Below are positions 35,772 to 64,000 of a stretch of 64,000 nucleotides of DNA, one piece after another. Every line of letters begins with the position of its first letter. Position 1 is the first letter of the stretch. Origin of the DNA: a bacterium (GTDB lineage: Bacteria > Verrucomicrobiota > Kiritimatiellia > RFP12 > UBA1067); NCBI GenBank assembly GCA_025360845.1, contig JANYBJ010000303.1:1545-65544 (forward strand), read 5' to 3'. The translations under genes were made by a program, and so were the position numbers. The notes under the pieces were generated by a model, which did not search any database, had not been told where the DNA came from, and was given only the letters and a program-made list of their open reading frames with translations.

Positions 35772-36202
35772 ACTTCAGGAAGAAATCTCGAAGCGTACTT
35801 CCGACCTTTCAGATGACGACGATGATGGACGTCGTTTTCCTGTTGCTTTTCTTCTTCATCTCGACGTCGATCTTTTCCCAGTGGGAGTACGAGGTCAAAA
35901 TCAGCCTTCCGTCGGCCAAGAGCGGCAAGGTGCCGGACCGTCTGCCGGGCGAGATCATCATCAACATCGCCAAGGACGGGCGCGTGTCGGTCAACCAGCA
36001 GGATCTGACGCTGGACGCGCTGAGGGGACGCTTGGACCGCCTGGCGCGTTATTTCCCTGGGCAACCGGTGGTGTTGCGCGCGGACAAGGAGACGCGGTAT
36101 GAGGCCCTCATCAAGGTGGTCGACACCTGCCGCATGGCAGACATCTGGAACTTCTCGATGGCCACGAGCGAAGACAAGAGCGTCGCGACGGAGAGCAAAT
36201 GA
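35768..36202 (+). CDS. exbD: ExbD/TolR family protein
   Basis: 144 aa. TTMMDVVFLLLFFFI TM segment, then GEIIINIAKDGRVSVNQQ and VVLRADKETRYEALIKVVD. ATGA overlap with exbB. Confidence 0.88.
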   Translation: MNFRKKSRSVLPTFQMTTMMDVVFLLLFFFISTSIFSQWEYEVKISLPSAKSGKVPDRLPGEIIINIAKDGRVSVNQQDLTLDALRGRLDRLARYFPGQPVVLRADKETRYEALIKVVDTCRMADIWNFSMATSEDKSVATESK

Positions 36203-48023: not shown

Positions 48024-49445
48024 TCAGGATTCGTGCCGTCTCCGGTCCCTCTGCTCCCCCACCGGAATGTACACCTGGAAGGTCGTGCCTTTGCCCTGCT
48101 CGCTCGCCACGTCGACAGCCAGTCGAAGGTTGCGGGCGATCTGCCTGACGATGGCCAACCCGAAGCCCATCGAATTCGGGTTAAAGGCGGCCGCCTCCTG
48201 TGTCCGGTAAAAATCCTCGAAAATGTGAGGCAGCGCCTGATCGCTGATGCCGATGCCGTGATCGGCTATGCGGACCGTCACCTGTGTCGCTTCTTCCTCA
48301 ATTCCGACTTCCACGCTTCCCTTAGTATGAGAATAGATAATGGCGTTCGAGATCAGGTTCGACAAGAGAATGCGCAACTGATTGGGGTCGCTGAGCACGG
48401 TCACTTCGCAAGCGGAGAGAGCCGCGGAAACCTGTTTTCCCGCCGCCAGTCCCTGAACATCCTGAAGGATCGTCTCCAACAAACCATGCAAATTCACCGG
48501 CTTGACGACGCGCTCCCCTGACGGCGCGGAGCGCAGGCTTCCGAGCAGCAGGATGTCGCCGATTCGGGAACGCAGAGACATTGACCGCACGTCGATCTTG
48601 TCGACGAGTTGGCGCACGCCTTCGGGCATTTCTTGCCAGTGCAGGTGCTTCAGGAGTTGGATGTTACTTTCAATGCCTGAGAAGGGCGCTTTGAGGTCGT
48701 GCGTCACGCGCAGCATTTGCAGGTTGATTTCCTGATCCGCCCGCATGATCCTTCCGTTGGCTTCTTCGAGATCGCGGTCGCACTGGCGCACGGCTTCCGA
48801 AATGGATGAAACCAGGTACCACACGATCACCCAGACAAACACGGCCGGAACGGCAAAGGTGGCTTTCGACAGGATGGCCGCCGTATCCGCCGCGCCGGAT
48901 GATGCCGCGGGGAGCCCCGCGCACTCCAGGGCAACCACGCCGAGAAACAGCCCTGAACTCAGCACTGTCACCACGAAACTGTCGCGGCGGCCGAAGAAGA
49001 TACAGGCCAATGTGATGTGGAAGAGATACGCAAACCCGATGACGGTGGTGGTGGGCCCGAACTGGTAAACCACGACGCTCAGAACAGCCAGGTCAGTGAC
49101 GATCTGGAACCAGATGTTGGTGGCCACGGCGTTCCAGGAACAGGGGGTGCGGGAGGCGAGATGGCGTATCCAGCGGCCAGAAACCTGGTTTAACAAAACC
49201 AGCAGACCGGCCAGAATTATCGGCCACCGTCCGGGCGGAGGAAACCCGAGGCGCTCAAGCAGGAACGGGTGCAGGAGGTAACTCGCCCCGCCGAAAACCG
49301 CCAGGAGGGCGATCACGATCCAACGGATGCGCGTGAACCAACTCGCGTTTTTCAGCAGAATCGGCCCCGTCAGACCACTGACAGTGCCGTGACGCAGGGC
49401 GGTCTCTTCCAGCCGGGATTCAGGATCGAGTCTGAAGCAGCCCAT
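48024..49445 (-). CDS. Membrane sensor histidine kinase
   Basis: 473 aa. ~6 N-terminal TM segments, H-box RVTHDLKAPF, HATPase N/G boxes (LLSNLISNAIIYS, DHGIGI, GFGLAIV). Confidence 0.9.
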   Translation of the reverse strand: MGCFRLDPESRLEETALRHGTVSGLTGPILLKNASWFTRIRWIVIALLAVFGGASYLLHPFLLERLGFPPPGRWPIILAGLLVLLNQVSGRWIRHLASRTPCSWNAVATNIWFQIVTDLAVLSVVVYQFGPTTTVIGFAYLFHITLACIFFGRRDSFVVTVLSSGLFLGVVALECAGLPAASSGAADTAAILSKATFAVPAVFVWVIVWYLVSSISEAVRQCDRDLEEANGRIMRADQEINLQMLRVTHDLKAPFSGIESNIQLLKHLHWQEMPEGVRQLVDKIDVRSMSLRSRIGDILLLGSLRSAPSGERVVKPVNLHGLLETILQDVQGLAAGKQVSAALSACEVTVLSDPNQLRILLSNLISNAIIYSHTKGSVEVGIEEEATQVTVRIADHGIGISDQALPHIFEDFYRTQEAAAFNPNSMGFGLAIVRQIARNLRLAVDVASEQGKGTTFQVYIPVGEQRDRRRHES

Positions 49446-49451: not shown

Positions 49452-50012
49452 TCACTTATCGAAATAGTGCATCGCTTGCATTTTCTTCATCAGGCCAATG
49501 TCGCGCTCTTTCACTTGAATCAGCGCGGCCAGAACAGCCCGCACATTCTCATCGGAGGAGTGTGTGAGAATGAACCGGTACCGGGACGCCAGTTTGCCTT
49601 GCCGGCGGATGGCGTCTTCCAACAATTCGGTGCCTTTGACTGTGGCGGGGTTGGACGTGGGCAGACCGTGCTCGACCTGCGGGTCGAAAGGCTCATCGCA
49701 GATGAACGCGGTTTTCCGGGCGTGCTCAAGCGTTTTTTTGGGCAGGTCATCAAGCGCGACGGGAAGACGGCCCCGATCGCGGGCGAGATGGTAGGTCAGC
49801 AACCGGATGCCGTTGTCCGGCGTGTGGTCCCGGACCTCGGCATAATACTTGTTCAGCCGTTTCTTAAAAGCCAGTTCCAGATCCAAAAAAGCGCCAAGCG
49901 TGAGGGTTGCCATGCCGTTCTGCTGCCCGTTAGCTTTAGACTGTTTTCGCCGTGATTCCGTCTCTTCCGGCAGACCGGAAATTTTCGGCAGATAGCCTCG
50001 CTGCAACTTCAT
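49452..50012 (-). CDS. Hypothetical protein co-transcribed with the histidine kinase
   Basis: 186 aa. 6-nt gap to the kinase gene. No family recognised. Confidence 0.55.
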   Translation of the reverse strand: MKLQRGYLPKISGLPEETESRRKQSKANGQQNGMATLTLGAFLDLELAFKKRLNKYYAEVRDHTPDNGIRLLTYHLARDRGRLPVALDDLPKKTLEHARKTAFICDEPFDPQVEHGLPTSNPATVKGTELLEDAIRRQGKLASRYRFILTHSSDENVRAVLAALIQVKERDIGLMKKMQAMHYFDK

Positions 50013-51207: not shown

Positions 51208-51239
51208 GATGTAAATTTATAACGTATAGGTAATTGGTT

Positions 51240-51656
51240 ATGAAAATGCCCGATCAAATTCGCGCCATTCTTGTCGTGGATGACGAGCCCGAAGAACTGA
51301 AAGCGACCTGTCAGGCGTTGGGCACGCAACGCCCAGTGCTGACGGCGGCTTCGGGGCAGGAAGCGCTGCGTATGGCCCGCGAGATGTTGCCTTGCGCGAT
51401 CGTGCTGGACGTCATGATGTCTGGAGGTATGGACGGGTTCGCCGTTTTCAACGAGCTGCAGCATGATCCTGCCACACGGCACATTCCGGTCATCTTTCTG
51501 ACCCACGTCAATCAGGTTACCGGGTTGTCGTTCGGGTCCGGCGATCTGAGGCGTTACCTTGGCTCTGAACCGGCCGCTTTTCTGGAAAAGCCGGTTTCCT
51601 CCGAGACGCTGCGCCGTGAAGTGGAGCGGATTCTCAACGACGGGCGCTGCGCCTGA
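51240..51656 (+). CDS. Stand-alone response-regulator receiver (CheY-like)
   Basis: ILVVDDEPEEL, AIVLDVMMSGGMDGF (phospho-acceptor Asp), PVIFLT. No output domain. Confidence 0.88.
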   Translation: MKMPDQIRAILVVDDEPEELKATCQALGTQRPVLTAASGQEALRMAREMLPCAIVLDVMMSGGMDGFAVFNELQHDPATRHIPVIFLTHVNQVTGLSFGSGDLRRYLGSEPAAFLEKPVSSETLRREVERILNDGRCA

Positions 51657-51773
51657 GGGGCGTATTTATTGGCCTTGCTCGAACGAATCCGCTATTGTGT
51701 GGTTTAGCGCCGTTCAGAAGGCGACTGGAACAAAGCAGATGGCACCGAGAAACTGAAGGAACACGGATCGCAT

Positions 51774-53252
51774 ATGAGCATGCAGGGAAAGTTTAGCGGT
51801 TTACTGAAAAACTGGGTTAGTGTCGCCGGCATTTTTCTGGGAGCCACGGCTCTCACAACGGGCACGGTGCTCCTAATCATCGATGCTTCCCGCGAGAATC
51901 TGTCGCCGTATTTCGGCATCCTGATTTATCTCGTGGTTCCGGGCTTCCTAGCCGGTTCCGGCCTGCTGGTGGTGCTGGGCATGCTCTGGACCCGGCGCCG
52001 TATGCACCGTCAGGGTTACGTTCCCCGCTTGCCTGTGATTGACCTGAGCGACCGCCGAACCCTGTCGCGCATCGCGTTCCTCGGTCTGCTGCTGAGCGTG
52101 TTTTTCATCGTGTCCACCTTGGCGACGTACCGCATGTACCACTTCACCGAGTCCGTGCCTTTTTGCGGTATGATCTGCCATCAGGCGATGAATCCTGAAT
52201 ACACCGCCTTTCAGCAGTCGCCGCATGCCAACACCTCCTGTACGGAATGCCACATCGGCCCTGGCGCGAAGTGGTTCGTCAAAGCCAAGATCTCCGGCCT
52301 CTATCAGGTCTACTCGGTCCTGTTCAACAAGTATCATCGCCCCATTGAAACGCCCGTGGAGAATCTCCGGCCGGCCAAGGAAACCTGTCTGGCGTGCCAC
52401 TGGCCGACCAAGTTTTTCGGCGCCGTGCTGCGAACGTGGACCTACTACCGGACGGACGAGAAGAACTCGCCTTGGACCATCACGATGCTTCTCAATATCG
52501 GCGGCGGCAATCCGGCCCACGGACCGATCCGGGGTATCCACTGGCATATGGAGGGAGTCAATACAATCGATTATGTCGCGACAGACCGGAAGCGTCTGGT
52601 CATCCCGTGGGTCCGCGTGACCGACCAGGCGGGCAAAGTCACGGTCTACCGCACGACGGACGACAAAACCAAAATTTCCGACGGGCAGGCCGCCACGCTA
52701 CCCCAGCGCCGCATGGACTGTATCGACTGTCATAACCGGCCGACCCACCAGTATCGGGCTCCCAACGAGGTGCTCGACATGGCACTTTCTTCGGGCAGAA
52801 TCGACAGCTCCCTTCCCTCGGTCAAGGCACAGACCGCCAAGGTGCTGGCCGCCAAGTACAAAACACAGGCGGAGGCACTGACCGCCATCGACCGTGAACT
52901 CCGGGCGACGTACGCGGGCGACCCCCGGGTCGAGGCCACCATCCGTGAGGTCCAGTCCATTTACAGCGCCAATTTCTTCCCCGAGATGAACGTTCGCTGG
53001 ACTGAATACCCCAACCATGTCGGACACAAGATCACCCCAGGCTGCTTCCGTTGCCACGACGACAAGCACGTCAGCGAGTCCGGCAAACGGATATCGAAAG
53101 AGTGCAAGACGTGCCATACCATTCTGGCCCAAGGCCCCGGCAAGGACCTGCCCGCGTTCACGTCGTCAGGGCTGGATTTCCAACATCCTGAGGATGTCGG
53201 CGAAGACTGGAAGACCGAACGCTGCGACACCTGCCACACCGGCAGCCCGTAG
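51774..53252 (+). CDS. Inner-membrane NapC/NirT-related multihaem cytochrome c (ImcH-like; 3 TM, 7 haem motifs)
   Basis: 492 aa with three N-terminal TM segments. Motifs CGMICH (CX3CH), CTECH, CLACH, CIDCH, CFRCH, CKTCH, CDTCH. Confidence 0.8.
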   Translation: MSMQGKFSGLLKNWVSVAGIFLGATALTTGTVLLIIDASRENLSPYFGILIYLVVPGFLAGSGLLVVLGMLWTRRRMHRQGYVPRLPVIDLSDRRTLSRIAFLGLLLSVFFIVSTLATYRMYHFTESVPFCGMICHQAMNPEYTAFQQSPHANTSCTECHIGPGAKWFVKAKISGLYQVYSVLFNKYHRPIETPVENLRPAKETCLACHWPTKFFGAVLRTWTYYRTDEKNSPWTITMLLNIGGGNPAHGPIRGIHWHMEGVNTIDYVATDRKRLVIPWVRVTDQAGKVTVYRTTDDKTKISDGQAATLPQRRMDCIDCHNRPTHQYRAPNEVLDMALSSGRIDSSLPSVKAQTAKVLAAKYKTQAEALTAIDRELRATYAGDPRVEATIREVQSIYSANFFPEMNVRWTEYPNHVGHKITPGCFRCHDDKHVSESGKRISKECKTCHTILAQGPGKDLPAFTSSGLDFQHPEDVGEDWKTERCDTCHTGSP

Positions 53253-53322
53253 CACCGCTCGGGGGCGGGTGTGCCTCGATTCGAGGAACGCCCCGTTCCC
53301 GCCTGGCCGGAAAAGCTGAGCC

Positions 53323-55446
53323 TTACGGGTTCACGAGGTCATACTGCGTAGTGCGCTGCGCGGGAAGCCAGCCCGCTTCGCGGATGAGCGCCTGAACCTG
53401 GTCAGCGGTCACGGCATACGCGACGCCTGTCGCGCGGACAACCTGTTCCTCCATCAGCACGCCGCCGAAGTCGTCCGCTCCGAACTGGAGCGCCAACTGC
53501 GCCGCGTCGGGTCCTTCCGTAACCCACCCCGCCTGGATATGGGGCACATTGTCCAGAACCAGACGGGACAGCGCGATCATCCGCAGATAGTCGGCCCCGG
53601 TCTGTTCGGGAAGGTCGAGCGCCGTCCGGTTGGGCTGGAAACTCCAAGGGATGAAGGCCGTAAAGCCGCGGGTCCGGTCTTGAAGTTCACGCACCCGTAT
53701 CAAATGCTCGACGCGCTGCGCCGTGGTTTCGCCCAGGCCGTACACCATCGTGGCGGTCGTCTTCAGGCCCAGCGCATGGGCGGTCTCCATCACATTGAGC
53801 CATTCGCCGGCGGTGGTCTTGTGGGGGCTGACCCGCGCCCGCACCGCATCCACCAGAATCTCCGCGCCGCCTCCGGGCAGCGACTGCAAGCCCGCCGCGA
53901 TCAGCCGTTCCAGCACGCTGCGCACCGACAGGCGCTCCTGCTTTGCGAAGAAAACGATTTCAGTCGGCGAGAGCGAGTGAATCCAGAGCGGCGATTCCTG
54001 CCTGATACGGGCGAACACCTGCTCATAAAAAGCCAGCCCGCAGGCCGGGTTGATTCCGCCCTGTAACAAAATCTGCGTCGCTCCCGCCTGAGCCGCCGCC
54101 CGCACCTTGCTGACGATCTCATCGACGGACAGGGTAAACCCCTGACCCGATTCAGGCGCGACATGAAAGGCGCAGAACGTGCATTTCGCCTCACAGATGT
54201 TGGTGACGTTCAGATTGCGGTCGATCACAAAGGTGACCCGTCTTCCCGCCACGATCTCCCGCCGGCGTTGGAGCGCCGCAACTCCAAGGTGCCCCAGAGG
54301 GGCCGTGTCATGGAGCCATACCGCTTCCTCCGCCGTCAACCGTTTGCCGGCAGCGGCGGAGGACAGGAGGTCGCGGCATGACAATGACGAGGCTCCGGTC
54401 TCCGCCTTGCCGTACGCGTCCGTGCCCGCGTAAACGCTGTTGGTCAAGGCCGGGAGCAGTCTCAGGCTCCGGATGAACGCCTCCATTTCCTTAGGCGACG
54501 AGAACCGGTGGCAGTCCGGCGCTCCGGCGGCCTTGGCAATGCGCTCGTCCAAGCTGGTCCCGCCGATATCATCCACGCCGCCCTGCGTCAGTGCCCCCAG
54601 CAGCTTGCGGTCCACGTAATTCACGAGCATGCGCAGATGAGGCACGTTGTCGAGAAAAAGACGGGAGAGCGCCGCGACGCGCGCGATCCGGTCGCCGGAC
54701 GCTCCGCGCCTGATGTCAAGCTCGGTCCCGGCGGGATGAAAAGGCAGAGGAATGAAAGCTTTGAAGCCGCCGGCTTTGTCCTGCAGTGCGCGTATCCTGG
54801 AAAGATGATCGACGATGTCCGCATCCGTCTCGAGGTGGCCGAACAGCATCGTCGCATTGGTCGGGATACTCAACTGATGCGCCGTCTCGTGAACCGCGAG
54901 CCACTCCGATGCGGGTATTTTGCGGGTGCAGATGCGCTCCCGGACCTCCTCGGCGAAGATCTCCGCCCCGCCGCCGGACAGGGCTCCCAAGCCCGCCTCG
55001 CGCAAGCGGATCAGGACTTCGCGGACGGCAAGGCCGGCCTGATCCGCCAGCCAGCGGATTTCCACGGCGGTCATTCCCTGAATCAACGCGCCGGGAATGA
55101 TTTCCTTCGCGAGGCGCAGAAGCTTCTCATAGTACGCCAGATCCAGCTCCGGGATGATGCCTCCCACCACGTGCAGATCGGTCAGGTTCCAGTCGCGGAC
55201 GTGCATGAGAACATCGCGCGCCTCGTCGAGCGTCAGGACATAGGCGGTCTGCGCATCGCGCTCCCGCCAAAAAGCGCACAGTTTGCAGCGGTTCTCGCAG
55301 AGGTTCGTCGGATTCAGGTTGTAGCTGTGGACATAATAAGTGGCACACCCGTGCCGCGCCCGACGTTGCCCATCCGCCAGCGCCATCAGCTCCGCTGTGG
55401 AAGCGCTTTGCAACGCCTTCAAAGCCTGGTCGGGACTCCATCTCAT
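53323..55446 (-). CDS. Tandem radical-SAM fusion of MqnE/MqnC-type enzymes (aminofutalosine synthase + cyclic dehypoxanthinyl-futalosine synthase)
   Basis: 707 aa. Two CxxxCxxC clusters (CENRCKLCAF, CEAKCTFCAF), each followed by a full CofG/CofH/Mqn-like barrel (GGGAEI..., FIP.. motifs). Lies in the mqn operon. Confidence 0.75.
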   Translation of the reverse strand: MRWSPDQALKALQSASTAELMALADGQRRARHGCATYYVHSYNLNPTNLCENRCKLCAFWRERDAQTAYVLTLDEARDVLMHVRDWNLTDLHVVGGIIPELDLAYYEKLLRLAKEIIPGALIQGMTAVEIRWLADQAGLAVREVLIRLREAGLGALSGGGAEIFAEEVRERICTRKIPASEWLAVHETAHQLSIPTNATMLFGHLETDADIVDHLSRIRALQDKAGGFKAFIPLPFHPAGTELDIRRGASGDRIARVAALSRLFLDNVPHLRMLVNYVDRKLLGALTQGGVDDIGGTSLDERIAKAAGAPDCHRFSSPKEMEAFIRSLRLLPALTNSVYAGTDAYGKAETGASSLSCRDLLSSAAAGKRLTAEEAVWLHDTAPLGHLGVAALQRRREIVAGRRVTFVIDRNLNVTNICEAKCTFCAFHVAPESGQGFTLSVDEIVSKVRAAAQAGATQILLQGGINPACGLAFYEQVFARIRQESPLWIHSLSPTEIVFFAKQERLSVRSVLERLIAAGLQSLPGGGAEILVDAVRARVSPHKTTAGEWLNVMETAHALGLKTTATMVYGLGETTAQRVEHLIRVRELQDRTRGFTAFIPWSFQPNRTALDLPEQTGADYLRMIALSRLVLDNVPHIQAGWVTEGPDAAQLALQFGADDFGGVLMEEQVVRATGVAYAVTADQVQALIREAGWLPAQRTTQYDLVNP

Positions 55447-56198
55447 GCCACTCCCTCCGCCAGCATCCGCCTGAACAACTCCATCCCCTCGCGCTCACGG
55501 GCGCCGAGTTCATGGCGAAGACACCGTGTCAAATAATCATGGATGAACGCCTGCGGGCGGTGAAGCGTTTCAGCAAAGCGTGCGGTGAGGCGCGGAAGCG
55601 AGAGGAGTCCCGCCTGATATGCGGCATGCGCAATGCCGGAAAAGTCGGCCGCGGCCGGATGGTCGCGCCGATAGGCCCATACGGCAAACACAAACGGCAG
55701 ACCGGTCAATTCCTTCCAGGCCATGGCCAGATCGATGTCACCTCCAGGCGCAGGCGCGGAGCAGAGCGCACGGTCGCCGATGACGACAGCCGCGTCAACC
55801 GCGGCCTCCTTGCGGAAGGGCTCCATCACCACAGCACGCCGGAAATGCCGCTTCAGCAGCAATTCGGCCAGCGCGTTCGAGGTCGCCGAGGCAGGGTCTC
55901 TCATGACCGATCTCACCTGCGCCACAGGCACGTTGCACTTCAGCAACACGCTCTGCACCACTCCGTCGGCGGCAACGCCCAGCCCCTCGATCATCGCAAG
56001 GTCCGGATTGCGAAAACAATCCGCCACCGGAATCAGGGCGACGTCAACGCTCTTGTTCGTGAGTGCCCTTGCGAGCTGGGCGGGATGGTCGAACAGGAGG
56101 CGCACCCGGGGATCGACAGCCTGCAGGCAGTCGGCCAGCGGCGCGGCGTTACAGTAGGGGGATGCGGCGAAAACCAGTGTGGTCGCGGAGGGTTGCAT
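55443..56198 (-). CDS. mqnA: Chorismate dehydratase (futalosine pathway MqnA)
   Basis: 251 aa. VitK2_biosynth-family pattern (SPYCNAAPL, VDVALIPV). 4-nt overlap with the downstream gene. Confidence 0.75.
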   Translation of the reverse strand: MQPSATTLVFAASPYCNAAPLADCLQAVDPRVRLLFDHPAQLARALTNKSVDVALIPVADCFRNPDLAMIEGLGVAADGVVQSVLLKCNVPVAQVRSVMRDPASATSNALAELLLKRHFRRAVVMEPFRKEAAVDAAVVIGDRALCSAPAPGGDIDLAMAWKELTGLPFVFAVWAYRRDHPAAADFSGIAHAAYQAGLLSLPRLTARFAETLHRPQAFIHDYLTRCLRHELGAREREGMELFRRMLAEGVA

Positions 56199-56268
56199 CA
56201 GGCGACCTCCTTTCGAGTTGAGGCCTTCGGCCCGAAGCCGGAGAAACCCGTGGATTGACAGGTTGTCA

Positions 56269-58047
56269 TCATGTCAGCCTCGGCAGTCCATAGCGGTTCC
56301 AGTTGTCGGTCACGCGCTGTTCCTTCGCAGGATCGAAGGCCACCGGCAGGCGATACCCTTCCTTCCAGGTGGCGTCGAAGAGGATCGGCACATGCAGGAT
56401 CAACCGGTTGCCGGCCTGCTCGCGCCGCGCCGGGTGCAGGTCGGCAAGCGGGTCAAAACGCGTGAACCAGCCCCACAGGGCGAGCCGGTCATCGTGAAGG
56501 GGAACATCGTCCGATACCGCAGCCTGGAACACATACTGCCGGGTTACGGGATGCTCCCGCAGCGCCCGGATCACGGCCGTCTTGCGCCACGTCCGGCTGA
56601 CCTGCACCATGAGCACCCCTTCGCCTAAGGCGCGCAGCGCCAGAATGTCGGGATGGACATCGGCCGGCGGCGGCGGCGGCGGCGGGGCGGGGCGCAGGGG
56701 CGAGCGTTGCCCCCGGTGGGCCAGCAGAATCAGGCGGCTGCCCACATTCATGGACGGCCCGCTGAAATCGAGCGTGTCCTGCGCGGTCGGCGCCAGCAGG
56801 TGCAGACCGTCGGCCGGGTCGAAGTGTTGCCGCAACGCCCGGCTCACGGCGCGGAAATCGCGGATCTTCACATCGCTGTCCACCGCGATCAGGATCTTGG
56901 TGAGCGACAACTGGCCCTCGCCCATGACCCCAAGCGCGTATTTCAGCGACTCACGTTCGTAACGCGGCCCGACCGCCATCACAGCCAGAGGGTGGAACCC
57001 GGTCTCCGCATACGACCACAGGTCGCCGATGCCGGGCTTGATCATTTTCAGCAGGGGCACACACAGCTCCTGCAGGGCATTGCCGATGTAAAAATCTTCC
57101 TGCGGCGGCTTGCCCACCACCGTCGCCGGATAAATGGCATCCTTGCGCGCCAACAGGCGGTCCACACGATACACCGGAAAATCCGCGGAGTGGGAATAAT
57201 GGCCGAGGTGGTCGCCAAAGGGTCCTTCCCTCCGCACGTCTCCGGCAACCACACGGCCCTCCAGCACAAACTCGGCCGTGGCCGGAATCCGATGACCCGT
57301 TGTGGCGCGGGAAATCACATCCAGCGGACGGCCCATGAGCAGGGCCGCCAGCAGACGTTCGTCCATATCCTCCGGCAAAGGGGCGATCGCCGCGAGGGTC
57401 AGGGCGGGAGGCCCGCCCAGAAAGACGCTCACCGGCAGCGGTTGTCCCATTCGGCAGGCCTTCTGAAAATGAAACCCTCCACCCTTCTCGATTTGCCAGT
57501 GCATGCCGGTCGAGTCGTCGTCATAGCGTTGCATCCGGTAAATGCCCAAATTCCCGCTGCCCGTTTCCGGGTCAACCGTATGCACGAGCGGCAGCGTGAA
57601 GAAAGGTCCGCCGTCCAAGGGCCAGCAGGTCAGGCAGGGCAGGCGCGTCAACTGCGGCGGGGCGTGCAGCTCATCCAATACCGGCCCGGAGCGGCGATTC
57701 CGCATGCGGACGTCCAGAAAACGGAAAAGGGACTTGCGGTTTTTCCACACCGCGGAAACAGTCGGCGGCATCAGCGCTCCGGCCAGCGAGGCCAGTTCAC
57801 CGCCGATGTCTGCCGGCGGGCGGCCGAAGACCCGCTCGACCCGCTCTGCGGTTCCGAACAGGTTGCTGACCACGCGGTAGGGCGACCCCTTCACTCTCTC
57901 AAAAAGCAACGCGGGGCCGTTCGCCGCGAGCACGCGGTGTTGGATGATCGTGATGTCCTGGTCCGGGTCGACCTCCTCCTTGACGCGCACCAGCTCGCCA
58001 CTTTGCTCCAAGTTCTGGATGAAGCTGCGCAGATCCGGAAAACTCAT
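56269..58047 (-). CDS. UbiD-family (prenylated-FMN dependent) decarboxylase, menaquinone-associated
   Basis: 592 aa. UbiD-like throughout (MSFPDLRSFIQNLEQSGELVRVKEEVDP..., GIYRMQ). Lies between ubiX and mqnA. Confidence 0.85.
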   Translation of the reverse strand: MSFPDLRSFIQNLEQSGELVRVKEEVDPDQDITIIQHRVLAANGPALLFERVKGSPYRVVSNLFGTAERVERVFGRPPADIGGELASLAGALMPPTVSAVWKNRKSLFRFLDVRMRNRRSGPVLDELHAPPQLTRLPCLTCWPLDGGPFFTLPLVHTVDPETGSGNLGIYRMQRYDDDSTGMHWQIEKGGGFHFQKACRMGQPLPVSVFLGGPPALTLAAIAPLPEDMDERLLAALLMGRPLDVISRATTGHRIPATAEFVLEGRVVAGDVRREGPFGDHLGHYSHSADFPVYRVDRLLARKDAIYPATVVGKPPQEDFYIGNALQELCVPLLKMIKPGIGDLWSYAETGFHPLAVMAVGPRYERESLKYALGVMGEGQLSLTKILIAVDSDVKIRDFRAVSRALRQHFDPADGLHLLAPTAQDTLDFSGPSMNVGSRLILLAHRGQRSPLRPAPPPPPPPADVHPDILALRALGEGVLMVQVSRTWRKTAVIRALREHPVTRQYVFQAAVSDDVPLHDDRLALWGWFTRFDPLADLHPARREQAGNRLILHVPILFDATWKEGYRLPVAFDPAKEQRVTDNWNRYGLPRLT

Positions 58048-58604
58048 CGCACCGTTCCCCAGTTTTCAGCAGACTCGTGCCCCAGCATTGACAGGACGCG
58101 GTCAACATAGGCACCCAGCAGATCGTCCATCGTGACCGATCCAGGGTCACGGCCAGCCATCATGTAGAAGGGCGGTGAGAGCGGCATGATGATGCCGCCG
58201 GCGGCAGCCGTGTTCACGGCGCTCTGGAGGTTGATCAGCGACCACGGCGTTTCGCGGATGCAGAGGATGAGTTTGCGCTGCTCCTTCAGGTGACAGTGGG
58301 CCGCGCGGGTAATCAGGGTGTCACCGATGCCATGCGCGATCTTGCCCAGCGTATTGGCCGTACAAGGAAGAACGACCATGCCACGGGTAGGCACCGACCC
58401 CGAGGCGATCGGCGCCTTCAGGTCCGAGTCGGCGTAAACCTCGGCCGCGCGAGCCTCCAACGAAGCGAACGCGCCACACTCCTGCTCATAGACGGCCCGC
58501 CCCTGTTCGCTCGCGACCAGCGTCACTGGCCAAGGTGCCTTTTCGACCAAGATCCGGGTCGCATGCACCCCCGTCGCGCCTGTTAATGCCACTACCAAGT
58601 TCAC
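58044..58604 (-). CDS. ubiX: Flavin prenyltransferase UbiX
   Basis: 186 aa. VVALTGATG, VVLPCTANTLGKIAHGIGDTLITRAA. Confidence 0.9.
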   Translation of the reverse strand: MNLVVALTGATGVHATRILVEKAPWPVTLVASEQGRAVYEQECGAFASLEARAAEVYADSDLKAPIASGSVPTRGMVVLPCTANTLGKIAHGIGDTLITRAAHCHLKEQRKLILCIRETPWSLINLQSAVNTAAAGGIIMPLSPPFYMMAGRDPGSVTMDDLLGAYVDRVLSMLGHESAENWGTVR

Positions 58605-60040
58605 GGCAAACCTTCCATCAAAATCACCAGTGCCCCCGCGACCCCCGCGATGGCAGAGATAGGGAAAAACCGGATATGGACCGGAATCTTTTGCCAGTAG
58701 GCCAACGTCATCGCAGACAAGGCCACGAGCAGTGCGATACCCGACGTCACACCGCCCGCACTATACCAAAGACGGACTAAGGCCGCCGCAGAAATCAGAT
58801 GCGTAAGGGCCGCGATGACCTGAGCGCGCGCCGGACCCGCAGCGGCGGGCAGGCTGCGCACCCCATGCGCCCGGTCAAAGTCGATGTCCAGAAGCGCGTA
58901 GATGATATCGAACCCGCTCATCCAGCCGAAGGTGAAGAGCGCGAGGAGACACACCTCGGGCGTGAACGCTAGGCTGCCCGAGACAGCCACGAACGCGCCG
59001 AGCGGCGCGAGGGCCAGGCACAGGCCGATCCCGTAGTGGCACAGGCAGGTAAACCGCTTGAGAAACGAATAGAGCGCCAAGGGCACGAGCGGGACAAGGG
59101 CGAGCATGAACAGCGTGGGTATCAGGAGCGCGCAGCCCAGCAGATAGGCCGCGAGCCCCGTCGCCGCGATCACATAGCCATGGAACAACGACAGCCGTCT
59201 CGCAGGCAGTTCACGATTCGAGGTGCGCGGATTCTTGGCGTCGATGTCGCAGTCGGCGATGCGGTTGATCGCCATGCCGAAGGTGCGGGCCCCGGTTCCG
59301 ATCAGGGCGATGAGCGCCAGCGCCCGCAGCGGGGGACAGTGGCCGCCGGCACCGAGCCACGCGCCGGCAAAGAGCAGGGGCAGGCTGAAAACGGTGTGTT
59401 CCACGCGCGTGAAGCGAAGCAGCTTCGGCACAAAGGCGCCAGAGGCGCGTGCGTCAAGGTCGAGGGCCTGAAGCACGTGGCCGGCCACATGCTCAGAGAC
59501 GGAGTTCAGGTGTTTGCGGATATCCGATTTTCCGTCCCGGTCGCCAAAGTCGGTGACGCCCTTGATGAGACAGCAGGGGATGTGGCGCTCTTGGCATTCG
59601 GCGGCAACCGCAAAGCCCTCCATGTCCACCAGTTCGCCGACTTTCGCCAAGGCGGTTCGCCGACCGGAATCGAACACCGGTTCCCGTACCGTGACCAGCG
59701 TCCTGCGCTCCAGGCCGGGCGCACGGTCAAGGTGCAACGCGCAGACGCGCTCCGGCTGCTCTCCGTCGACCACGGAGCTGACCGTGAAAACGCCACCCCG
59801 GTCGATTCCGCCGGCAAGCGCGCCGCAGACGCCGGCATTGATGATTTGGCGGACGGAATGCCTCTCGACGAGTTCCCGGCAGGCCTCACGGGCTGCGGCC
59901 ATGCCCATGCCGGAGATGATCACGCAGGCGTGACCGTTGAAGCGGTAGGCGACAAACGGCGACGTGCTGAGCCGCTCGGCATGTCCTCTGTCCAAGAGCG
60001 GGCGGGCCTCCTCCGCCGTCGCAAACAGCACCCCGGTCAT
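58601..60040 (-). CDS. Fusion: futalosine hydrolase/nucleosidase (MqnB-like, PNP_UDP_1 fold) + UbiA-family polyprenyltransferase (MqnP-like)
   Basis: 479 aa. N-terminal ~200 aa are nucleosidase-like (VIISGMGMAAA, VDMEGFAVA). The C-terminal multi-TM part carries NRIADCDIDAKNPRT (NxxxDxxxD) and YALLDIDFD. Confidence 0.75.
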   Translation of the reverse strand: MTGVLFATAEEARPLLDRGHAERLSTSPFVAYRFNGHACVIISGMGMAAAREACRELVERHSVRQIINAGVCGALAGGIDRGGVFTVSSVVDGEQPERVCALHLDRAPGLERRTLVTVREPVFDSGRRTALAKVGELVDMEGFAVAAECQERHIPCCLIKGVTDFGDRDGKSDIRKHLNSVSEHVAGHVLQALDLDARASGAFVPKLLRFTRVEHTVFSLPLLFAGAWLGAGGHCPPLRALALIALIGTGARTFGMAINRIADCDIDAKNPRTSNRELPARRLSLFHGYVIAATGLAAYLLGCALLIPTLFMLALVPLVPLALYSFLKRFTCLCHYGIGLCLALAPLGAFVAVSGSLAFTPEVCLLALFTFGWMSGFDIIYALLDIDFDRAHGVRSLPAAAGPARAQVIAALTHLISAAALVRLWYSAGGVTSGIALLVALSAMTLAYWQKIPVHIRFFPISAIAGVAGALVILMEGLP

Positions 60041-60858
60041 AGTCCTCCTCCCACCTTTTGCACGAGGGTCTCCAGAGCGGCAACCGCCGCGCGTCCGGTC
60101 GCGCCGAGATCAAGACTGAATTCGTTCACATACGTTTTGATGTGCTTCCGGATGACCTCGTCATCGAGTTCCTGCGCGTACCGCTTGATATAGGCCTGCG
60201 GCGCCGCCGGGTTCTTCAAGGCGAAGCGCAGCGACCGCTCGATCAGCTCTTCGCAACCGGCGATGCCCTCTTCGCCGAGCGTTTTCCGCGCCGCGATACA
60301 GCCGAGCGGTATCGGCAGGCCGGTTTGCGATTCCCACCAGTCGCCCAGATCCGCGAGGCAGGCAAGGCCCCTCTGGCGATACACAAAGCGGCCTTCATGG
60401 ATGATCACGCCCGCATCGACCCCTCCGCTTGCCACCATCCCCATGATCCGGTCATAGGGGACGAAAACCCGGTTTCGTGCCTCCGGCGCCCACAGGCGAA
60501 AGAGCAGGTGGGCGGTCGTATGTTCACCCGGAATCGCGATTTTGGCGAGAGGTGGGAGGTGCGGGCCGAAGGAGTCCCGGACGACGACAAGCGGTCCGCA
60601 GCCGCGTCCCAGGGTCGCGCCAACCCGCAGAAGCTGATAGGCGTCGCGAACCTGCAGCCACGCGTGAAAGGAAAGCTTGGTCACGTCGTAGACGCTGTCA
60701 AAGGCCATTCGGTTGAGCGTCTCGACATCGTGAAGCCGGGTCTCGATTTCCAACTGTCCGCCGAAGCGGTCAAGGGGCAACTCGACACGGTCAGCCGCCA
60801 GGCCGTAAAAAGTAAAGGTGTCGTTCGGACACGGTGAATAGGCAACGCTTAATGTCAC
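60037..60858 (-). CDS. mqnD: 1,4-dihydroxy-6-naphthoate synthase
   Basis: 273 aa. MTLSVAYSPCPNDTFTFYGL, HDVETLN, DVTKLSFHAW. Confidence 0.85.
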   Translation of the reverse strand: MTLSVAYSPCPNDTFTFYGLAADRVELPLDRFGGQLEIETRLHDVETLNRMAFDSVYDVTKLSFHAWLQVRDAYQLLRVGATLGRGCGPLVVVRDSFGPHLPPLAKIAIPGEHTTAHLLFRLWAPEARNRVFVPYDRIMGMVASGGVDAGVIIHEGRFVYRQRGLACLADLGDWWESQTGLPIPLGCIAARKTLGEEGIAGCEELIERSLRFALKNPAAPQAYIKRYAQELDDEVIRKHIKTYVNEFSLDLGATGRAAVAALETLVQKVGGGL

Positions 60859-61120
60859 GAGGGGCTTGTCTCCGTTTAGCCGGTCACGCCGTAGGGGATT
60901 TCAGGCCGGCTGCGAACCACGGAATACCGGGGAAATCGATATCGTAGAAATGTCCTATTATGTCATTTAGTCGGCAATTGTAAAGACCCGACCGCGCGGG
61001 CCCTGTGAAACCGCTCATTCGGGCCAATTGGGTCTTGAACGGGAAAGTTATTCATGATAAATTTCAGAATTCGTCTTGACCTTATGGGTGGTTCCGATAC
61101 GTGAAGAAGGATGACTGCAA

Positions 61121-63253
61121 ATGAATGGAATCTCGACTGGGCGGGCTCTGGGCCGGGGATGGTTTGTGCTGGCGGCGATGTGCCTGTTCCCCAGCACTCG
61201 CACCCTGGGCGCGGCGATCACGAACAGCGACTGCATGGACTGCCATGAAGATGCGAAACTCACCCGTGTGGTTTCAGGGGTGACCAACTCGCTGCAGGTG
61301 GTTGAGAAGGTGCTGAAAAAGTCGGTTCATTCGCAACTCTCCTGCACGGACTGTCACGCGGGCATCAAGGAACTTCCGCACGCTGAAAAGTTGCCTGCCC
61401 CGCAGTGCGGGACTTGCCATGAAGACATCGCCAAGGCGTACACCGACAGCATCCACGGTGCGAGCGTGCGCATGGGGGCTTCGGGCGCGGCGACCTGTTC
61501 CTCCTGCCACGGAGCGCACAACATCGCGCCTGTCAAGCAGGGCGACTCGCCGGTGTTTAAGCTCAACCTGCCGTCGACCTGCGCGCGCTGCCACAGCAAC
61601 GCCAATCTGACATCCGAATACCGTTTGAAATTCCCGGAAGCCGCCTCGCAATACATGGAAAGCATCCACGGGCGCGCCTTGATCAAGCTGGGCCTGACGA
61701 TGGCCCCGTCCTGCAGCGACTGCCATGGCGTCCACAATATCCGCCGGAGCGTGGACCGCGATTCGCAGATCAACCATGCCCATATCGCCGACACCTGCGG
61801 CAAGTGTCACTTGGGTGTGGAGAAAACCTATCTGAAGAGCGTGCATGGCCAGCTCCTTGCCAAGGGCGACGCCCGCGGTCCCGTCTGCACGGACTGCCAT
61901 TCGGCGCACCAGATCGAAGCGCAAGAGGGCGGGCTTCGCAAGGCATCGAGCGACCAGCGCTGCGGCAAATGCCATCAGGATAGGCTGGAAAATTACATGG
62001 AGACCTATCACGGCAAAGCCATCGCCCTGGGGGCCTCGCACGCGGCCTCTGAGGTGGCGGCCTGCTACGACTGCCATGGCCACCACGACGTGCTTCCGCC
62101 TTCGAACCCGGAGTCCCGTCTGTCCGCGACCAACATCCTGCAGACCTGCCAGCAATGCCATAAGGGCGCCACAGCGAAGTTCACCGAGTATGTTCCCCAT
62201 GCCGACCCGACGGACCGCAAGCACTATCCTCTCCTCCACGCTGTCTTTCTCGCGATGACAGGCCTGCTGGTGGGCACGTTTGCCTTCTTCGGGCTGCACA
62301 CGGCCCTTTGGCTGTTCCGCTCCGTCTATCTGTTTCTCCACGATTCGAAAACCTTCCGCGAAGCCAAGGTAAAGACCCAGGTCGATGACCAGTGGTTTAC
62401 CCGTTTCTCACCGTTTGAACGGATGCTGCATATCATGGTCGTCACCAGTTTCCTTCTGCTGGTGGTAACTGGCATGCCGCTGAAATTCCACTACACCGAC
62501 TGGGGCAAGGCCATCTTCCACGTCCTTGGAGGGGCGCCGGTGGCCCGCTCGCTGCATCATTTCGCGGCCATCATCACGTTTCTGTATTTCGCCCTGCATC
62601 TGACGGACCGCATCCGCTCCTGCTGGCAGGGCCGGGGCAACCTGTTTGATCCCGAGACCGGGCGGTTCCAGATGAAGCGGCTCACCGATATCCTCGTGGG
62701 CCCCGATTCCATGGTTCCCAACAAGAAAGACTGGCAAGAATTTATAGCGCATCAAAAGTGGTTCTTCGGAAAGGGGCCGCGGCCCGAGTTCGATCGCTGG
62801 ACCTATTGGGAGAAGTTCGACTATCTCGCGGTCTTTTGGGGCGTCGCCATGATTGGCGCCTCCGGCCTGGTCATGTGGTTCCCGCTGTTCTTCACCCGGT
62901 TCATGCCGGGCTGGGCGATCAACATCGCGATGATCATTCATTCCGACGAGGCGCTGCTGGCGGCGGGCTTCATCTTCACCTTCCATTTCTTCAACACGCA
63001 CTTCCGGATTGAGAAGTTCCCGATGGACACCGTGATCTTCTCGGGGCGCATCTCAAAGGCCGAAATGCTGCATGAGCGCAAGCGCTGGTATGACCGGCTT
63101 GTGGCGACGGATAAACTGGAAAGCCACCGTGTTCAGGACGAATGGACGCGCTGGAGAAATATCGCCCGGACGTTCGGGTACCTGTTCTTCGGGACGGGGA
63201 TTATCCTGCTCTTCTTGATCGTGGTGGCGATGGCCGCACGCCTGTTGCACTAG
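61121..63253 (+). CDS. Fusion of an 11-haem periplasmic cytochrome c domain with a C-terminal ~6-TM b-type-cytochrome-like membrane domain (CbcL-like quinol:cytochrome oxidoreductase)
   Basis: 710 aa with a signal peptide and 11 CXXCH motifs: CMDCH, CTDCH, CGTCH, CSSCH, CARCH, CSDCH, CGKCH, CTDCH, CGKCH, CYDCH, CQQCH. The TM helices carry conserved-looking His ([31 protein letters not shown]). Confidence 0.8.
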
Positions 63254-63273
63254 TTTCTAAGGGAAACGACCTT

Positions 63274-64000
63274 ATGCGCTACTTCAACACATTTGTGATG
63301 CTGACAGGCCTGCTGGCTGCGCTGTTGCCGCGCAGTGCGCCGGCACTCGACAACAGCGACTGCTTCACCTGCCACGAGGACAAGAAGCTGACCAAGAAGA
63401 GCGCGGACGGGAAGGTGATCGCGCTGTTTGTGGATGTTAAGAAGTACGGCACCTCCGTGCATGCCACCAACACCTGTACGACTTGCCACTCCGACATCAC
63501 CGAAGTGCCGCATCCGGACAAATTCGCGGCCAAGCCGGTCAACTGTGCCTCGTGCCACGAGAAGGCGGTGAGTTCCTACACCGCCAGCATTCACGGCCGC
63601 TCACGCCACGCGGGCAATATGAGCGCCGCCACCTGCGCCGACTGCCACAGTACGCATGACATCCAGTCGCCCAGGACAGCGGCCTCGCCCCTCCACCGTG
63701 AGAATCAAGGCGCCGTTTGCGGCAAGTGCCATCAAGAGATCATGGTCGAGGTCAGGAACAGCATTCACGGCAAGGCCATGGCGCATGGGGCGCCGGATGC
63801 GCCCACCTGTACGGACTGCCACGCCGACCACCAGATCAGCGGCCTGAAGGCGGTCTCGCCGCTGGAAGCGGCCAAAGAAGTTTGCAGTCAATGCCATGCT
63901 TCGGAACGGTTCAACGCCCGGTATAATCTGCCGCGGGACCGCGTCACGACCTTCTTGTCCAGCTATCACGGCATGGCGTCAAAGTTCGGCTCGAGCCGCA
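63274..64000 (+). CDS. Multihaem cytochrome c, 5' partial (runs off the window end)
   Basis: Not in the supplied ORF track; translated by hand. MRYFNTFVMLTGLLAALLPRSAPALDNSDCFTCH... has 7 CXXCH in 242 codons and no stop before 64000. It has the same S-[IV]-H-G / CxxCH module as the upstream gene. Confidence 0.8.
   Translation, partial: MRYFNTFVMLTGLLAALLPRSAPALDNSDCFTCHEDKKLTKKSADGKVIALFVDVKKYGTSVHATNTCTTCHSDITEVPHPDKFAAKPVNCASCHEKAVSSYTASIHGRSRHAGNMSAATCADCHSTHDIQSPRTAASPLHRENQGAVCGKCHQEIMVEVRNSIHGKAMAHGAPDAPTCTDCHADHQISGLKAVSPLEAAKEVCSQCHASERFNARYNLPRDRVTTFLSSYHGMASKFGSSR

Follow-up and report, generated by a model that had tools for sequence, protein, structure and literature searches.

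A cluster of ImcH- and CbcL-type multihaem cytochromes around a futalosine menaquinone operon in a Kiritimatiellia-related bacterium, with a probable role in menaquinol oxidation

Organization of the locus

The 64,000-nt stretch of contig JANYBJ010000303.1 analysed here (the window, to which all positions refer unless a locus is named) ends in a cluster of genes for membrane-bound multihaem cytochromes, which encloses an operon for menaquinone synthesis by the futalosine pathway. Loci with L-numbers were fetched from relatives or from the same species. A first-pass annotation of the window had described four elements within 13 kb: a cytochrome related to NapC/NirT with three transmembrane helices and seven haems, a contiguous six-gene futalosine set, an 11-haem cytochrome c fused to a b-type membrane domain, and a further multihaem cytochrome that leaves the window. 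The open reading frame (ORF) map, haem-motif counts and domain scans place all four where that annotation had put them. The cytochrome genes are the following.

51774-53252, plus strand: ImcH-family inner-membrane hepta-haem cytochrome c, 492 amino acids; predicted menaquinol dehydrogenase with a quinol site on the periplasmic side
61121-63253, plus strand: CbcL/MtrH/MtoC-family fusion of an 11-haem cytochrome c with a six-helix FdnI-type dihaem cytochrome b, 710 amino acids
63274-64000 (window end), plus strand: 5' part of a second CbcL-type gene, of the 9-haem kind, 242 codons with seven CXXCH motifs

Six tightly packed minus-strand genes fill positions 53323-60858 between the ImcH gene and the 11-haem CbcL gene. 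This menaquinone (mqn) operon has its own upstream region and is convergent with the ImcH gene and divergent from the CbcL gene. Therefore, the region comprises at least three transcription units. Domain scans of the genes within 51774-64000 detect no catalytic subunit of a reductase, as the earlier annotation had stated for terminal reductases.

The gene order of the window recurs in independent assemblies of the same species (L001-L003), and the arrangement is not an assembly artefact, because the same order is present in the independent assembly L001. The identical ImcH protein is recorded elsewhere solely on shorter Logan contigs, which end inside the CbcL gene. A look-up found no record identical to the product of 61121-63253, for which the best match among species representatives has 84% identity. 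The nearest named relatives are Kiritimatiellia metagenome-assembled genomes (MAGs), whose CbcL-type proteins are 81-84% identical to that of the window. The remainder of the window is part of a saccharolytic chromosome, with genes for sugar transport and uronate utilization, a low-GC restriction/defence islet, Nramp, ExbB and aconitase, which agrees with the earlier description of a saccharolytic genome like those of the Planctomycetes-Verrucomicrobia-Chlamydiae (PVC) group.

The ImcH-type cytochrome

The protein encoded at 51774-53252 begins with three hydrophobic helices, which span residues 15-38, 46-73 and 95-121 in the hydropathy profile and residues 14-39, 45-79 and 94-125 in the AlphaFold model. 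The first haem motif, CGMICH at residues 131-136, is of the CX3CH type, and CXXCH motifs follow at residues 156, 205, 316, 424, 444 and 484. The seven haems counted in the first-pass annotation therefore correspond to six canonical motifs and one atypical motif. The NapC/NirT family of Pfam (PF03264) matches residues 102-189 with 33.8 bits, above the cut-off of 24.1, and the sole specific relative of solved structure is NrfH (2j7a_C, E-value 3.9e-6, residues 113-222).

The published ImcH of Geobacter, GSU3259, has 507 amino acids, haem motifs at residues 132, 156, 205, 311, 428, 448 and 486, and transmembrane helices at residues 13-35, 45-67 and 100-122 (Table S3, PMC6295460). According to the ImcH preprint (10.1101/2023.05.03.539133), the ligands of haem 1 are H137 (proximal) and Q179 (distal), and E127, K173 and Y188 are conserved at the presumed quinol site. 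The window protein carries the published residues with an offset of -1, as E126, H136, K172, Q178 and Y187. In an alignment of 162 homologues from protein matches and fetched loci, which are 36-100% identical to the window protein, the seven haem motifs, K172 and Q178 are invariant, position 126 is Glu or Asp, and position 187 is Tyr or Phe. The methionine three residues past the haem-1 histidine is invariant in the ImcH-type family and aligns with NrfH. Judged from its sequence, the protein belongs to the ImcH family by each published criterion tested, and the ImcH-like architecture proposed in the first pass extends from helices and haem motifs to the NapC/NirT region and the haem-1 residues.

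The CbcL-type fusions

The product of 61121-63253 consists of a signal peptide, eleven CXXCH motifs between residues 38 and 343, and six helices that hydropathy and AlphaFold place at residues 370-406, 431-455, 472-503, 561-586, 597-627 and 673-709. The extra first helix links the periplasmic cytochrome c domain to the cytoplasmic start of an FdnI-like bundle. A membrane-domain profile was built from eleven domains, namely those of eight 11-haem proteins and of three tandem paralogues (one with 11 haems, two with 9) that are 24-28% identical to the window protein. Its sole match among solved structures is FdnI of Escherichia coli (1kqf_C, E-value 3.5e-9). His18, His57, His155 and His169 of FdnI, which are the ligands of both of its b haems, align with H437, H479, H607 and H622. 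These four histidines are invariant or at least 90% conserved, the distant paralogues included, and H493 is conserved as well. Because the four FdnI-aligned histidines are conserved, the absence of histidine pairs for b haems, which the first-pass annotation had raised as a possible objection to its own proposal, does not apply.

Members of the CbcL/MtrH/MtoC family have 3-23 CX2CH motifs behind a signal peptide and mostly six membrane helices; CbcL itself (GSU0274) has 9 haems, 619 amino acids and six helices (PMC6295460). OQB93798.1 of Verrucomicrobia bacterium ADurb.Bin118 is the tabulated homologue most similar in architecture; with 723 amino acids, 11 haems and six transmembrane helices (Table S2, PMC6295460), it has nearly the CXXCH spacing of the window protein. 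By each published criterion tested, the sequence of the window protein assigns it to the CbcL/MtrH/MtoC family; haem count, helix number, FdnI homology and b-haem histidines all agree with the CbcL-like architecture proposed earlier.

The gene that leaves the window starts 20 nt past the stop codon of 61121-63253. Its product is 75% identical over 242 amino acids to a 587-amino-acid 9-haem c-b fusion with a Ni_hydr_CYTB domain in L005, and therefore it is a second CbcL-type gene. It is also 78% identical to the product of the gene that directly follows the 11-haem CbcL gene in L054. The further multihaem cytochrome of the first-pass annotation is thus the N-terminus of a c-b fusion, and its interpretation as a soluble periplasmic or outer-membrane cytochrome is rejected. 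The gene content beyond position 64000 is deduced from relatives.

Across Kiritimatiellia, Opitutae, Verrucomicrobiia and Lentisphaerae, the 11-haem CbcL is far better conserved than the linked ImcH (63-84% against 37-79% identity), and a 69% match is present in a 'Candidatus Acidiferrales' MAG. Either strong constraint or lateral transfer could account for this conservation.

The futalosine menaquinone operon

The earlier claim of a contiguous six-gene futalosine set is borne out by genes for MqnD, a nucleosidase::MqnP fusion, UbiX, UbiD, MqnA and an MqnE::MqnC fusion.

53323-55446, minus strand: MqnE::MqnC fusion with two radical-SAM modules (aminofutalosine synthase and cyclic dehypoxanthinyl-futalosine synthase); two Radical_SAM + CofH_C units
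55443-56198, minus strand: MqnA, chorismate dehydratase; Pfam VitK2_biosynth, 147 bits
56269-58047, minus strand: UbiD-family decarboxylase of the menaquinone (SCO4490) type with a C-terminal extension; UbiD_N, UbiD and UbiD_C
58044-58604, minus strand: UbiX-type flavin prenyltransferase, cofactor supplier for UbiD; Pfam Flavoprotein, 109 bits
58601-60040, minus strand: futalosine/aminofutalosine nucleosidase-like domain (MqnB role) fused to a UbiA/MqnP-type membrane prenyltransferase; PNP_UDP_1 + UbiA
60037-60858, minus strand: MqnD, 1,4-dihydroxy-6-naphthoate synthase, first gene of the operon; Pfam VitK2_biosynth, 244 bits

The core of the futalosine pathway is present as MqnA, the MqnE and MqnC halves of the fusion, MqnD and the weakly matching nucleosidase domain. 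MqnD has an E-value of 2e-72 to TTHA1568 of Thermus thermophilus (PDB 2czl/3a3u, 'menaquinone biosynthetic enzyme'), and the best PDB matches of MqnA are the chorismate dehydratases 6o9a and 7ahr (E-values of 1e-18 to 1e-21). Among NCBIfam models, the N-terminal half of the 53323-55446 product matches MqnE best (322 bits, below the cut-off), and the C-terminal half matches MqnC with 446 bits (cut-off 428). The N-terminal 200 amino acids of the nucleosidase::prenyltransferase fusion match nucleosidase models with 68 and 49 bits, below the cut-offs. A related locus, L007, carries another futalosine fusion at 6167-8122, which joins VitK2_biosynth, Radical_SAM and CofH_C in 651 amino acids.

The operon also encodes late steps of menaquinone synthesis, with a prenyltransferase, UbiD and UbiX. 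The prenyltransferase part matches TIGR01475 with 203 bits (cut-off 181) and the MqnP models with about 160 bits, below their cut-offs; UbiX matches TIGR00421 with 130 bits (cut-off 109) and UbiD matches TIGR03701 with 455 bits, below the cut-off of 496. Neither the cluster nor the scanned ORFs of the window include a MenG/UbiE methyltransferase or a polyprenyl-diphosphate synthase. Therefore, the cluster is not a complete pathway on its own, as the C-methyltransferase and the polyprenyl-diphosphate synthase are missing; their genes may lie elsewhere in the genome.

Conservation of the cluster in relatives

A scan of one genome per species identified relatives of the 11-haem protein in 272 species, and the best 80 loci were surveyed by tblastn with 10-kb flanks. 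A metagenome scan with the ImcH protein provided a second set of 80 loci, with 41-75% identity. An ImcH homologue lies within 10 kb of the CbcL gene in 47 of the 80 species loci, in 30 of them at a distance of 600 bp or less, and at least two CbcL-type genes are present in 53. Among the metagenome ImcH loci, half (40/80) have a CbcL-type neighbour. Because of these counts, the conserved and widespread unit in Verrucomicrobiota is ImcH together with one or two CbcL genes.

The mqn genes are not part of this unit. The first-pass annotation had suggested that the phylogenetic distribution of their linkage to the cytochromes be determined, and none of the six was found in the 80 species CbcL loci (tblastn) or in the 80 metagenome ImcH loci. 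In L010, which is the closest relative, a module of three proteins fills the slot that separates ImcH from the 11-haem CbcL (5961-8801): a 312-amino-acid membrane-anchored multihaem cytochrome, a 4Fe-4S protein exported by twin-arginine translocation (Tat), and an NrfD-type membrane protein. This module is a candidate for a further quinone-interacting unit, which would make four in a row. In other close relatives, ImcH and CbcL are directly adjacent. As none of the 160 loci carries mqn genes and the slot of the closest relative holds the cytochrome-FeS-NrfD module, the placement of the mqn operon is lineage-specific.

In close relatives, the cytochrome genes are preceded by genes for a histidine kinase, a 186-amino-acid protein, a PocR-AraC regulator and a receiver protein, and the CbcL genes are followed by genes for a secreted protein without a Pfam match, CcsA, ResB and a c554-like tetrahaem cytochrome. 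The first-pass annotation had envisaged a soluble reductase encoded just downstream of the window; the next gene is the CbcL paralogue, and the further genes of the relatives include no reductase. The secreted protein always follows the CbcL genes in Kiritimatiellia loci and has the motif 'NASRYTYVQIDTG..KIWAAGP'. Its gene probably lies just past the end of the window.

L009 9296-10084, L005 13603-14355, L008 14944-15732 and L173 13368-14078: secreted protein of 236-262 amino acids, no Pfam family

Two separate Kiritimatiellia lineages, represented by L005 and by L173/L174, carry a cytochrome triad beside ImcH-CbcL, together with genes for cytochrome c maturation and haem synthesis.

L005 18137-21479, L173 2642-7313 and L174 738-5409: triad adjoining ImcH-CbcL

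The triad consists of a lipoprotein cytochrome with 12-14 haems, a signal-peptide protein of 457-469 amino acids, and a multihaem cytochrome of about 765 amino acids that contains TSP3 repeats. No Pfam family matches the middle protein, which is rich in Tyr, Gly and Asp and has about 19 amphipathic strands; its two copies are 47% identical. The triad is a candidate porin-cytochrome conduit with a beta-barrel-like middle protein.

In L004, ImcH is positioned beside Rnf. In L170 (1242-18423), from another Kiritimatiellae lineage, it lies between maturation and haem genes on one side, which encode two radical-SAM/SPASM proteins, GluTR, CcsA and ResB, and a polyprenyl synthase with NqrA-F on the other. 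One stretch of L170 thus combines genes for a quinone reductase, for synthesis of the quinone side chain and for a quinol oxidase. An NrfD/FeS/tetrahaem module is often also present in loci of Verrucomicrobiia and Opitutae.

Regulatory genes, intergenic regions and other features of the window

Four genes on the 5' side of the cytochrome cluster encode regulators and a conserved hypothetical protein.

48024-49445, minus strand: membrane sensor histidine kinase, 473 amino acids; NCBIfam histidine-kinase core
49452-50012, minus strand: conserved hypothetical protein between the kinase and the PocR regulator, 186 amino acids
50104-51207, minus strand: PocR-sensor/AraC-type transcription regulator, 367 amino acids, with a conserved CHMCH motif
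51234-51656, plus strand: stand-alone receiver-domain response regulator, 140 amino acids; Pfam Response_reg, 51 bits
53253-53322, no strand: 70-nt spacer with a GC-rich hairpin between the convergent ImcH and MqnE::MqnC genes
60859-61120, no strand: 262-bp divergent intergenic region between mqnD and the first CbcL gene

Orthologues of the kinase, with 62-65% identity, are located upstream of the ImcH gene in L010 and L014, and by synteny only the kinase is a probable regulator of the cytochrome cluster. The 186-amino-acid protein has no Pfam or NCBIfam match; its orthologues occupy the same position in L010/L014 (41-44% identity) and L004/L005 (60%). The domains of the next protein are PocR, HTH_18 and HTH_AraC, as assigned to the identical gene of L001, and its C-terminus is AraC-type according to NCBIfam. 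It adjoins ImcH in L004-L006, L009, L010, L012, L014 and L015. The CHMCH of its sensor part resembles CXXCH, and the sole orthologue inspected, that of L010, has one CXXCH motif. The regulator might therefore sense redox state, a metal or haem through CHMCH. The receiver gene, directly upstream of ImcH, is kept in close relatives, and the terminator-like hairpin at its 3' end (51648-51664) is suggestive only.

The segment 53250-53325 around the spacer folds with a minimum free energy of -35.5 kcal/mol, which is unexceptional compared with shuffled sequences (z-score -1.58), and the hairpin is a weak terminator candidate. In the divergent intergenic region, a -35/-10-like site (TTTACA-16 nt-CATAAT) is present at 60984-60957 on the minus strand, and such sites are no commoner there than in shuffled sequences. 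Promoter-like sites number 3 against a shuffled mean of 3.3, and terminator-like sites 18 against 11.3 (standard deviation 3.9); the counts are close to the shuffled expectation, and single sites are suggestive only.

No Rfam element was found in the window. The stretch 11662-15952 has a GC content of 0.46-0.55, compared with about 0.62 elsewhere in the window, and encodes a YhcG/DUF1016 PDDEXK nuclease, a fragment of a type I restriction specificity subunit, an AAA_21 (AbiEii-like) ATPase and an RloB-like protein. This stretch is probably a defence islet gained by horizontal transfer. The adjacent ORFs 11662-12855 and 12852-13943 have the N-terminal sequence ATENGLSSPS in common, yet differ in their domains (nuclease and HsdS); a duplication or a frame artefact at the junction may be the cause. 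The window also contains an Nramp-type Mn/Fe transporter and an ExbB-ExbD-TPR-VWA set (24258-25694 and 34146-40526).

Proposed electron flow and alternatives

The observed gene content, family architecture, conserved ligands and synteny statistics suggest that the locus probably encodes three inner-membrane menaquinol:periplasmic-cytochrome oxidoreductases of the Geobacter kinds, which would drain the menaquinol pool during fermentation. The direction of electron flow, the sidedness of the quinol sites and the final acceptor that we infer would be as follows. The six-gene operon would make the naphthoquinone substrate. By analogy with characterized Geobacter proteins, the ImcH-type protein would oxidize menaquinol on the periplasmic face, at an NrfH-like site beside haem 1, with release of the protons to the outside, and its own haem chain would carry the electrons onward. 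The tandem CbcL-type proteins, with 11 and 9 c haems, would oxidize menaquinol at a site on the cytoplasmic side of the b domain, from which two b haems would conduct the electrons across the membrane to the c-haem domain in the periplasm. The CbcL route would cost membrane potential and reach acceptors of lower potential. In this way, a polysaccharide-fermenting cell of the Kiritimatiellia type could shed reducing equivalents from the menaquinone pool to periplasmic cytochromes. From there, the electrons would most likely travel through a porin-cytochrome conduit, with genes in another part of the genome, to extracellular or humic/metal acceptors, and the kinase, PocR-AraC and receiver genes would be the regulatory neighbours of the cytochrome genes.

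Cultured Pontiella contain menaquinones MK-6 to MK-9 and encode periplasmic or extracellular c cytochromes. They reduce Fe(III) citrate and MnO2/anthraquinone-2,6-disulfonate (AQDS) while fermenting, with about 75% less H2, and the authors of that work consider the mechanism unclear. For freshwater Verrucomicrobia, He et al. (2017, PMC5615132) described putative porin-multihaem cytochrome clusters; their work covers the outer-membrane part and depicts the inner-membrane step as a box without a named protein ('ET in IM'). It is tentatively possible, though we consider it rather doubtful, that Kiritimatiellia and many Verrucomicrobiota have a potential-tiered export cluster, in which ImcH serves high-potential acceptors and the two CbcL types, joined in some relatives by the cytochrome-FeS-NrfD module, serve lower ones. 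Such a cluster would feed a lineage-specific porin-cytochrome conduit, and the mqn genes would have been drawn in for co-regulation. If true, the tiered system would explain the reduction of Fe(III), Mn(IV) and AQDS by Pontiella together with the lowered H2 yield, and it would supply the missing inner-membrane step of humic-substance respiration in Verrucomicrobia.

Several points weigh against the export of menaquinol electrons as proposed. Membership in the ImcH and CbcL families rests on published motif, transmembrane and residue positions rather than on direct alignment. The Pfam Ni_hydr_CYTB model scores 23.3 bits on the 11-haem CbcL, below the cut-off of 30.1, and the FdnI models of NCBIfam, including TIGR01583 (41.5 bits), are below their curated cut-offs. 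The AlphaFold2 models, calculated from 31-sequence alignments, have predicted local distance difference test (pLDDT) values of 68.6 for the ImcH type and 57.8 for the CbcL type, with values below 50 in the haem-binding regions, and are informative for helix boundaries only. Foldseek comparison of these models with the PDB gave no match with an E-value below 0.5; the cytochrome b of Hyd-1 appeared at about 4-5. Genes for an outer-membrane conduit, a periplasmic shuttle or a quinone reductase are absent from the window. AQDS and metals are also reduced by Kiritimatiella glycovorans, which has neither quinones nor cytochromes, and such reduction therefore does not require this system. Because MtoC and MtrH of the CbcL family also occur in iron oxidizers (PMC6295460), the family does not fix the direction of flow. 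The last objection comes from the gene neighbourhoods: in 27 of the 80 loci, from Verrucomicrobiia and Opitutae, a gene for a class-I monohaem cytochrome c of 110-120 amino acids lies directly upstream of ImcH.

L033 4439-4783: example of the monohaem cytochrome c; Pfam Cytochrome_CBB3/Cytochrom_C

Monohaem carriers of this class usually serve oxidases. Because one adjoins ImcH in so many loci, the cluster may be a general quinol:cytochrome c oxidoreductase in the role of a bc1 complex or alternative complex III, which feeds a cbb3 oxidase, a peroxidase or NrfA for micro-oxic respiration or detoxification and not for extracellular electron transfer. The cluster is also present in MAGs titled Lacunisphaera and Oleiharenicola, genera that include aerobes or facultative aerobes, and Pontiella genomes encode ccoNOP, cydAB and nrfAH, with strain F21 being oxidase-positive. 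However, neither the window nor the closest Kiritimatiellia loci encode the monohaem cytochrome; those loci carry large multihaem cytochromes, the putative porin triad and c554-like tetrahaem proteins instead, and no oxidase or reductase genes are among the frequent neighbours in the 80 loci. As the closest relatives lack the monohaem gene and have the large multihaem proteins, the feeding of oxidases is rated below export and is unlikely, albeit the strongest of the competing functions.

About as unlikely is an explanation that concerns the position of the mqn operon, namely that it was selected so that quinone supply and quinol oxidation are regulated or inherited together, which would make the region a true island. 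The mqn-cytochrome arrangement is stable in the three assemblies of the species, and a looser association of ImcH with quinone genes recurs in Kiritimatiellia in differing arrangements: in L007, an ImcH with 71% identity is preceded by mqn genes and ubiE, L009 has a polyprenyl synthase near ImcH, and L170 has a polyprenyl synthase and Nqr. Against selection stand the lack of mqn genes in the 160 surveyed loci, the slot that holds another module in the closest relative and nothing in other relatives, the opposite strand with separate transcription units, and the incompleteness of the pathway in the cluster. Nor do signs of a mobile unit mark the operon, which has no flanking direct or inverted repeats beyond short matches at chance level and no marked shift in GC content. 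The position of the mqn genes is a lineage-specific accident of gene order, at most loose functional clustering, and not a defining part of the module. Of the 'self-contained' island proposed in the first-pass annotation, both cytochrome architectures are supported, whereas the linkage to mqn as its defining property is not.

It is quite improbable that the CbcL types run in the manner of FdnI and pass electrons from donors outside the cell or in the periplasm, such as Fe(II), reduced humics or a partner, to menaquinone on the cytoplasmic side, thereby generating proton-motive force, a role that has been proposed for MtoC and MtrH of iron oxidizers. The b domain carries the ligand set of FdnI, which works in the menaquinone-reducing direction, the family includes MtoC and MtrH of Fe(II)-oxidizing bacteria, and no sequence feature separates oxidizing from reducing members. 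However, the organism of the window looks like a sugar fermenter with surplus reductant, its cultured relatives reduce metals rather than oxidize them, and the locus encodes no terminal reductase that would consume menaquinol.

The Pfam NapC/NirT domain and weak matches to the models of NrfH (47 bits) and TorC (16.4 bits) would also suit an ordinary NrfH/NapC/TorC anchor for one dedicated soluble reductase nearby, but this reading of 51774-53252 is exceedingly unlikely and is rejected on scores, architecture and gene context, as the equivalog cut-offs are far higher (134.2 for NrfH and 455 for TorC), the NapC/NirT model TIGR02161 is unmatched, the protein has three transmembrane helices and seven haems against one helix and 4-5 haems of the anchors, no catalytic reductase gene is present in the window or beside the orthologue in L004-L010 or L170-L174, and the gene downstream of 61121-63253 is a CbcL paralogue.

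Relation to previous work and significance

Homologues of ImcH and CbcL in Verrucomicrobia and Lentisphaerae were tabulated already in 2018 (Zhong & Shi, PMC6295460), and the Geobacter literature mentions related genes in uncultivated Verrucomicrobia (10.1101/2023.05.03.539133). In the accessible portions of the literature that names ImcH, CbcL and Verrucomicrobi-, there is no description of the tight, widespread ImcH-CbcL-CbcL clustering in the phylum, of the Kiritimatiellia neighbourhood of the cluster, or of its link to Pontiella physiology. The locus adds to known families in an ecologically interesting host, and the striking position of its mqn operon is not conserved.

In anoxic lakes, peat and sediments, Kiritimatiellia and their kin are abundant and break down complex polysaccharides. 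Guild assignments in metagenome studies often class Kiritimatiellia-related Verrucomicrobiota as fermenters without electron-transport chains. The menaquinone pathway and the three quinol oxidases of Geobacter type suggest that at least some of these organisms are able to transfer electrons from their quinone pool into the periplasm. Should humics or metals receive these electrons, a smaller share of the carbon flow would end in H2 and methane. The genes are candidates for the unnamed inner-membrane step in the porin-cytochrome model of Verrucomicrobia and for the 'unclear' mechanism by which cultured Pontiella reduce metals and AQDS.

Comparison with known systems

The ImcH-type protein of the window and GSU3259 have in common three N-terminal transmembrane helices, a CX3CH motif directly after the third helix followed by six CXXCH motifs at near-identical positions, a NapC/NirT/NrfH-like region at the third helix and haems 1-3, and conserved Glu, Lys, Gln and Tyr residues near haem 1. 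The lengths are 492 and 507 amino acids, and the window protein differs by small indels between haems 3 and 4 and between haems 4 and 5. The hosts differ as well: Geobacter is an acetate-oxidizing metal respirer, whereas the window belongs to a Kiritimatiellia-like sugar fermenter. The ImcH gene of the window is clustered with CbcL-type genes and the PocR-AraC/receiver pair. In contrast, imcH (GSU3259) and cbcL (GSU0274) of Geobacter are unlinked, as deduced from the locus numbers in the cited papers. NrfH of Desulfovibrio vulgaris (2j7a chain C) aligns with the window protein in the membrane helix and the first haem motifs. However, NrfH has one transmembrane helix, 4 haems and 159 amino acids and forms a fixed complex with NrfA, whereas the window protein has three helices and seven haems, the first of them at a CX3CH motif, and its gene is not accompanied by one for a partner reductase.

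The 11-haem fusion resembles CbcL/MtrH/MtoC proteins in its N-terminal periplasmic multihaem c domain, its six-helix HydC/FdnI-type dihaem b domain with conserved histidines, and the lack of an FeS, flavin or molybdopterin partner. Compared with GSU0274, it has 11 haems and 710 amino acids instead of 9 haems and 619 amino acids, and its gene is followed by a tandem 9-haem paralogue, the orthologues of which lack the sixth helix. The 11-haem form also stands apart from CbcL by its unusual conservation across Verrucomicrobiota classes. With FdnI (1kqf chain C) the fusion has the four-helix dihaem b bundle and the aligned histidines in common. FdnI is a separate subunit that is fed by a molybdoenzyme/FeS pair and reduces menaquinone, whereas in the window protein an extra N-terminal helix joins the bundle to c haems, a further helix is added at the C-terminus, and the bundle is expected to operate in reverse.

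Like the mqn genes of Streptomyces coelicolor (SCO4490-4494/4506/4550), the operon of the window encodes MqnA, MqnC, MqnD, MqnE, a UbiA-type prenyltransferase and UbiD/UbiX. In contrast to the S. coelicolor clusters, it packs the pathway into six genes by means of two fusions and lacks a methyltransferase and a prenyl-diphosphate synthase.

The porin-cytochrome clusters of He et al. (PMC5615132) differ from the system described here in that the window contains no such triad and that the triads of its relatives have lipoprotein cytochromes with 12-14 haems, whereas those of He et al. have periplasmic cytochromes with 8 haems. Both belong to the same phylum, come from humic lakes and peat, and fit a hypothesis of extracellular electron transfer to humic substances, and the triad of a cytochrome, a barrel-like protein and a large cytochrome beside ImcH-CbcL in the relatives resembles the clusters described by He et al.

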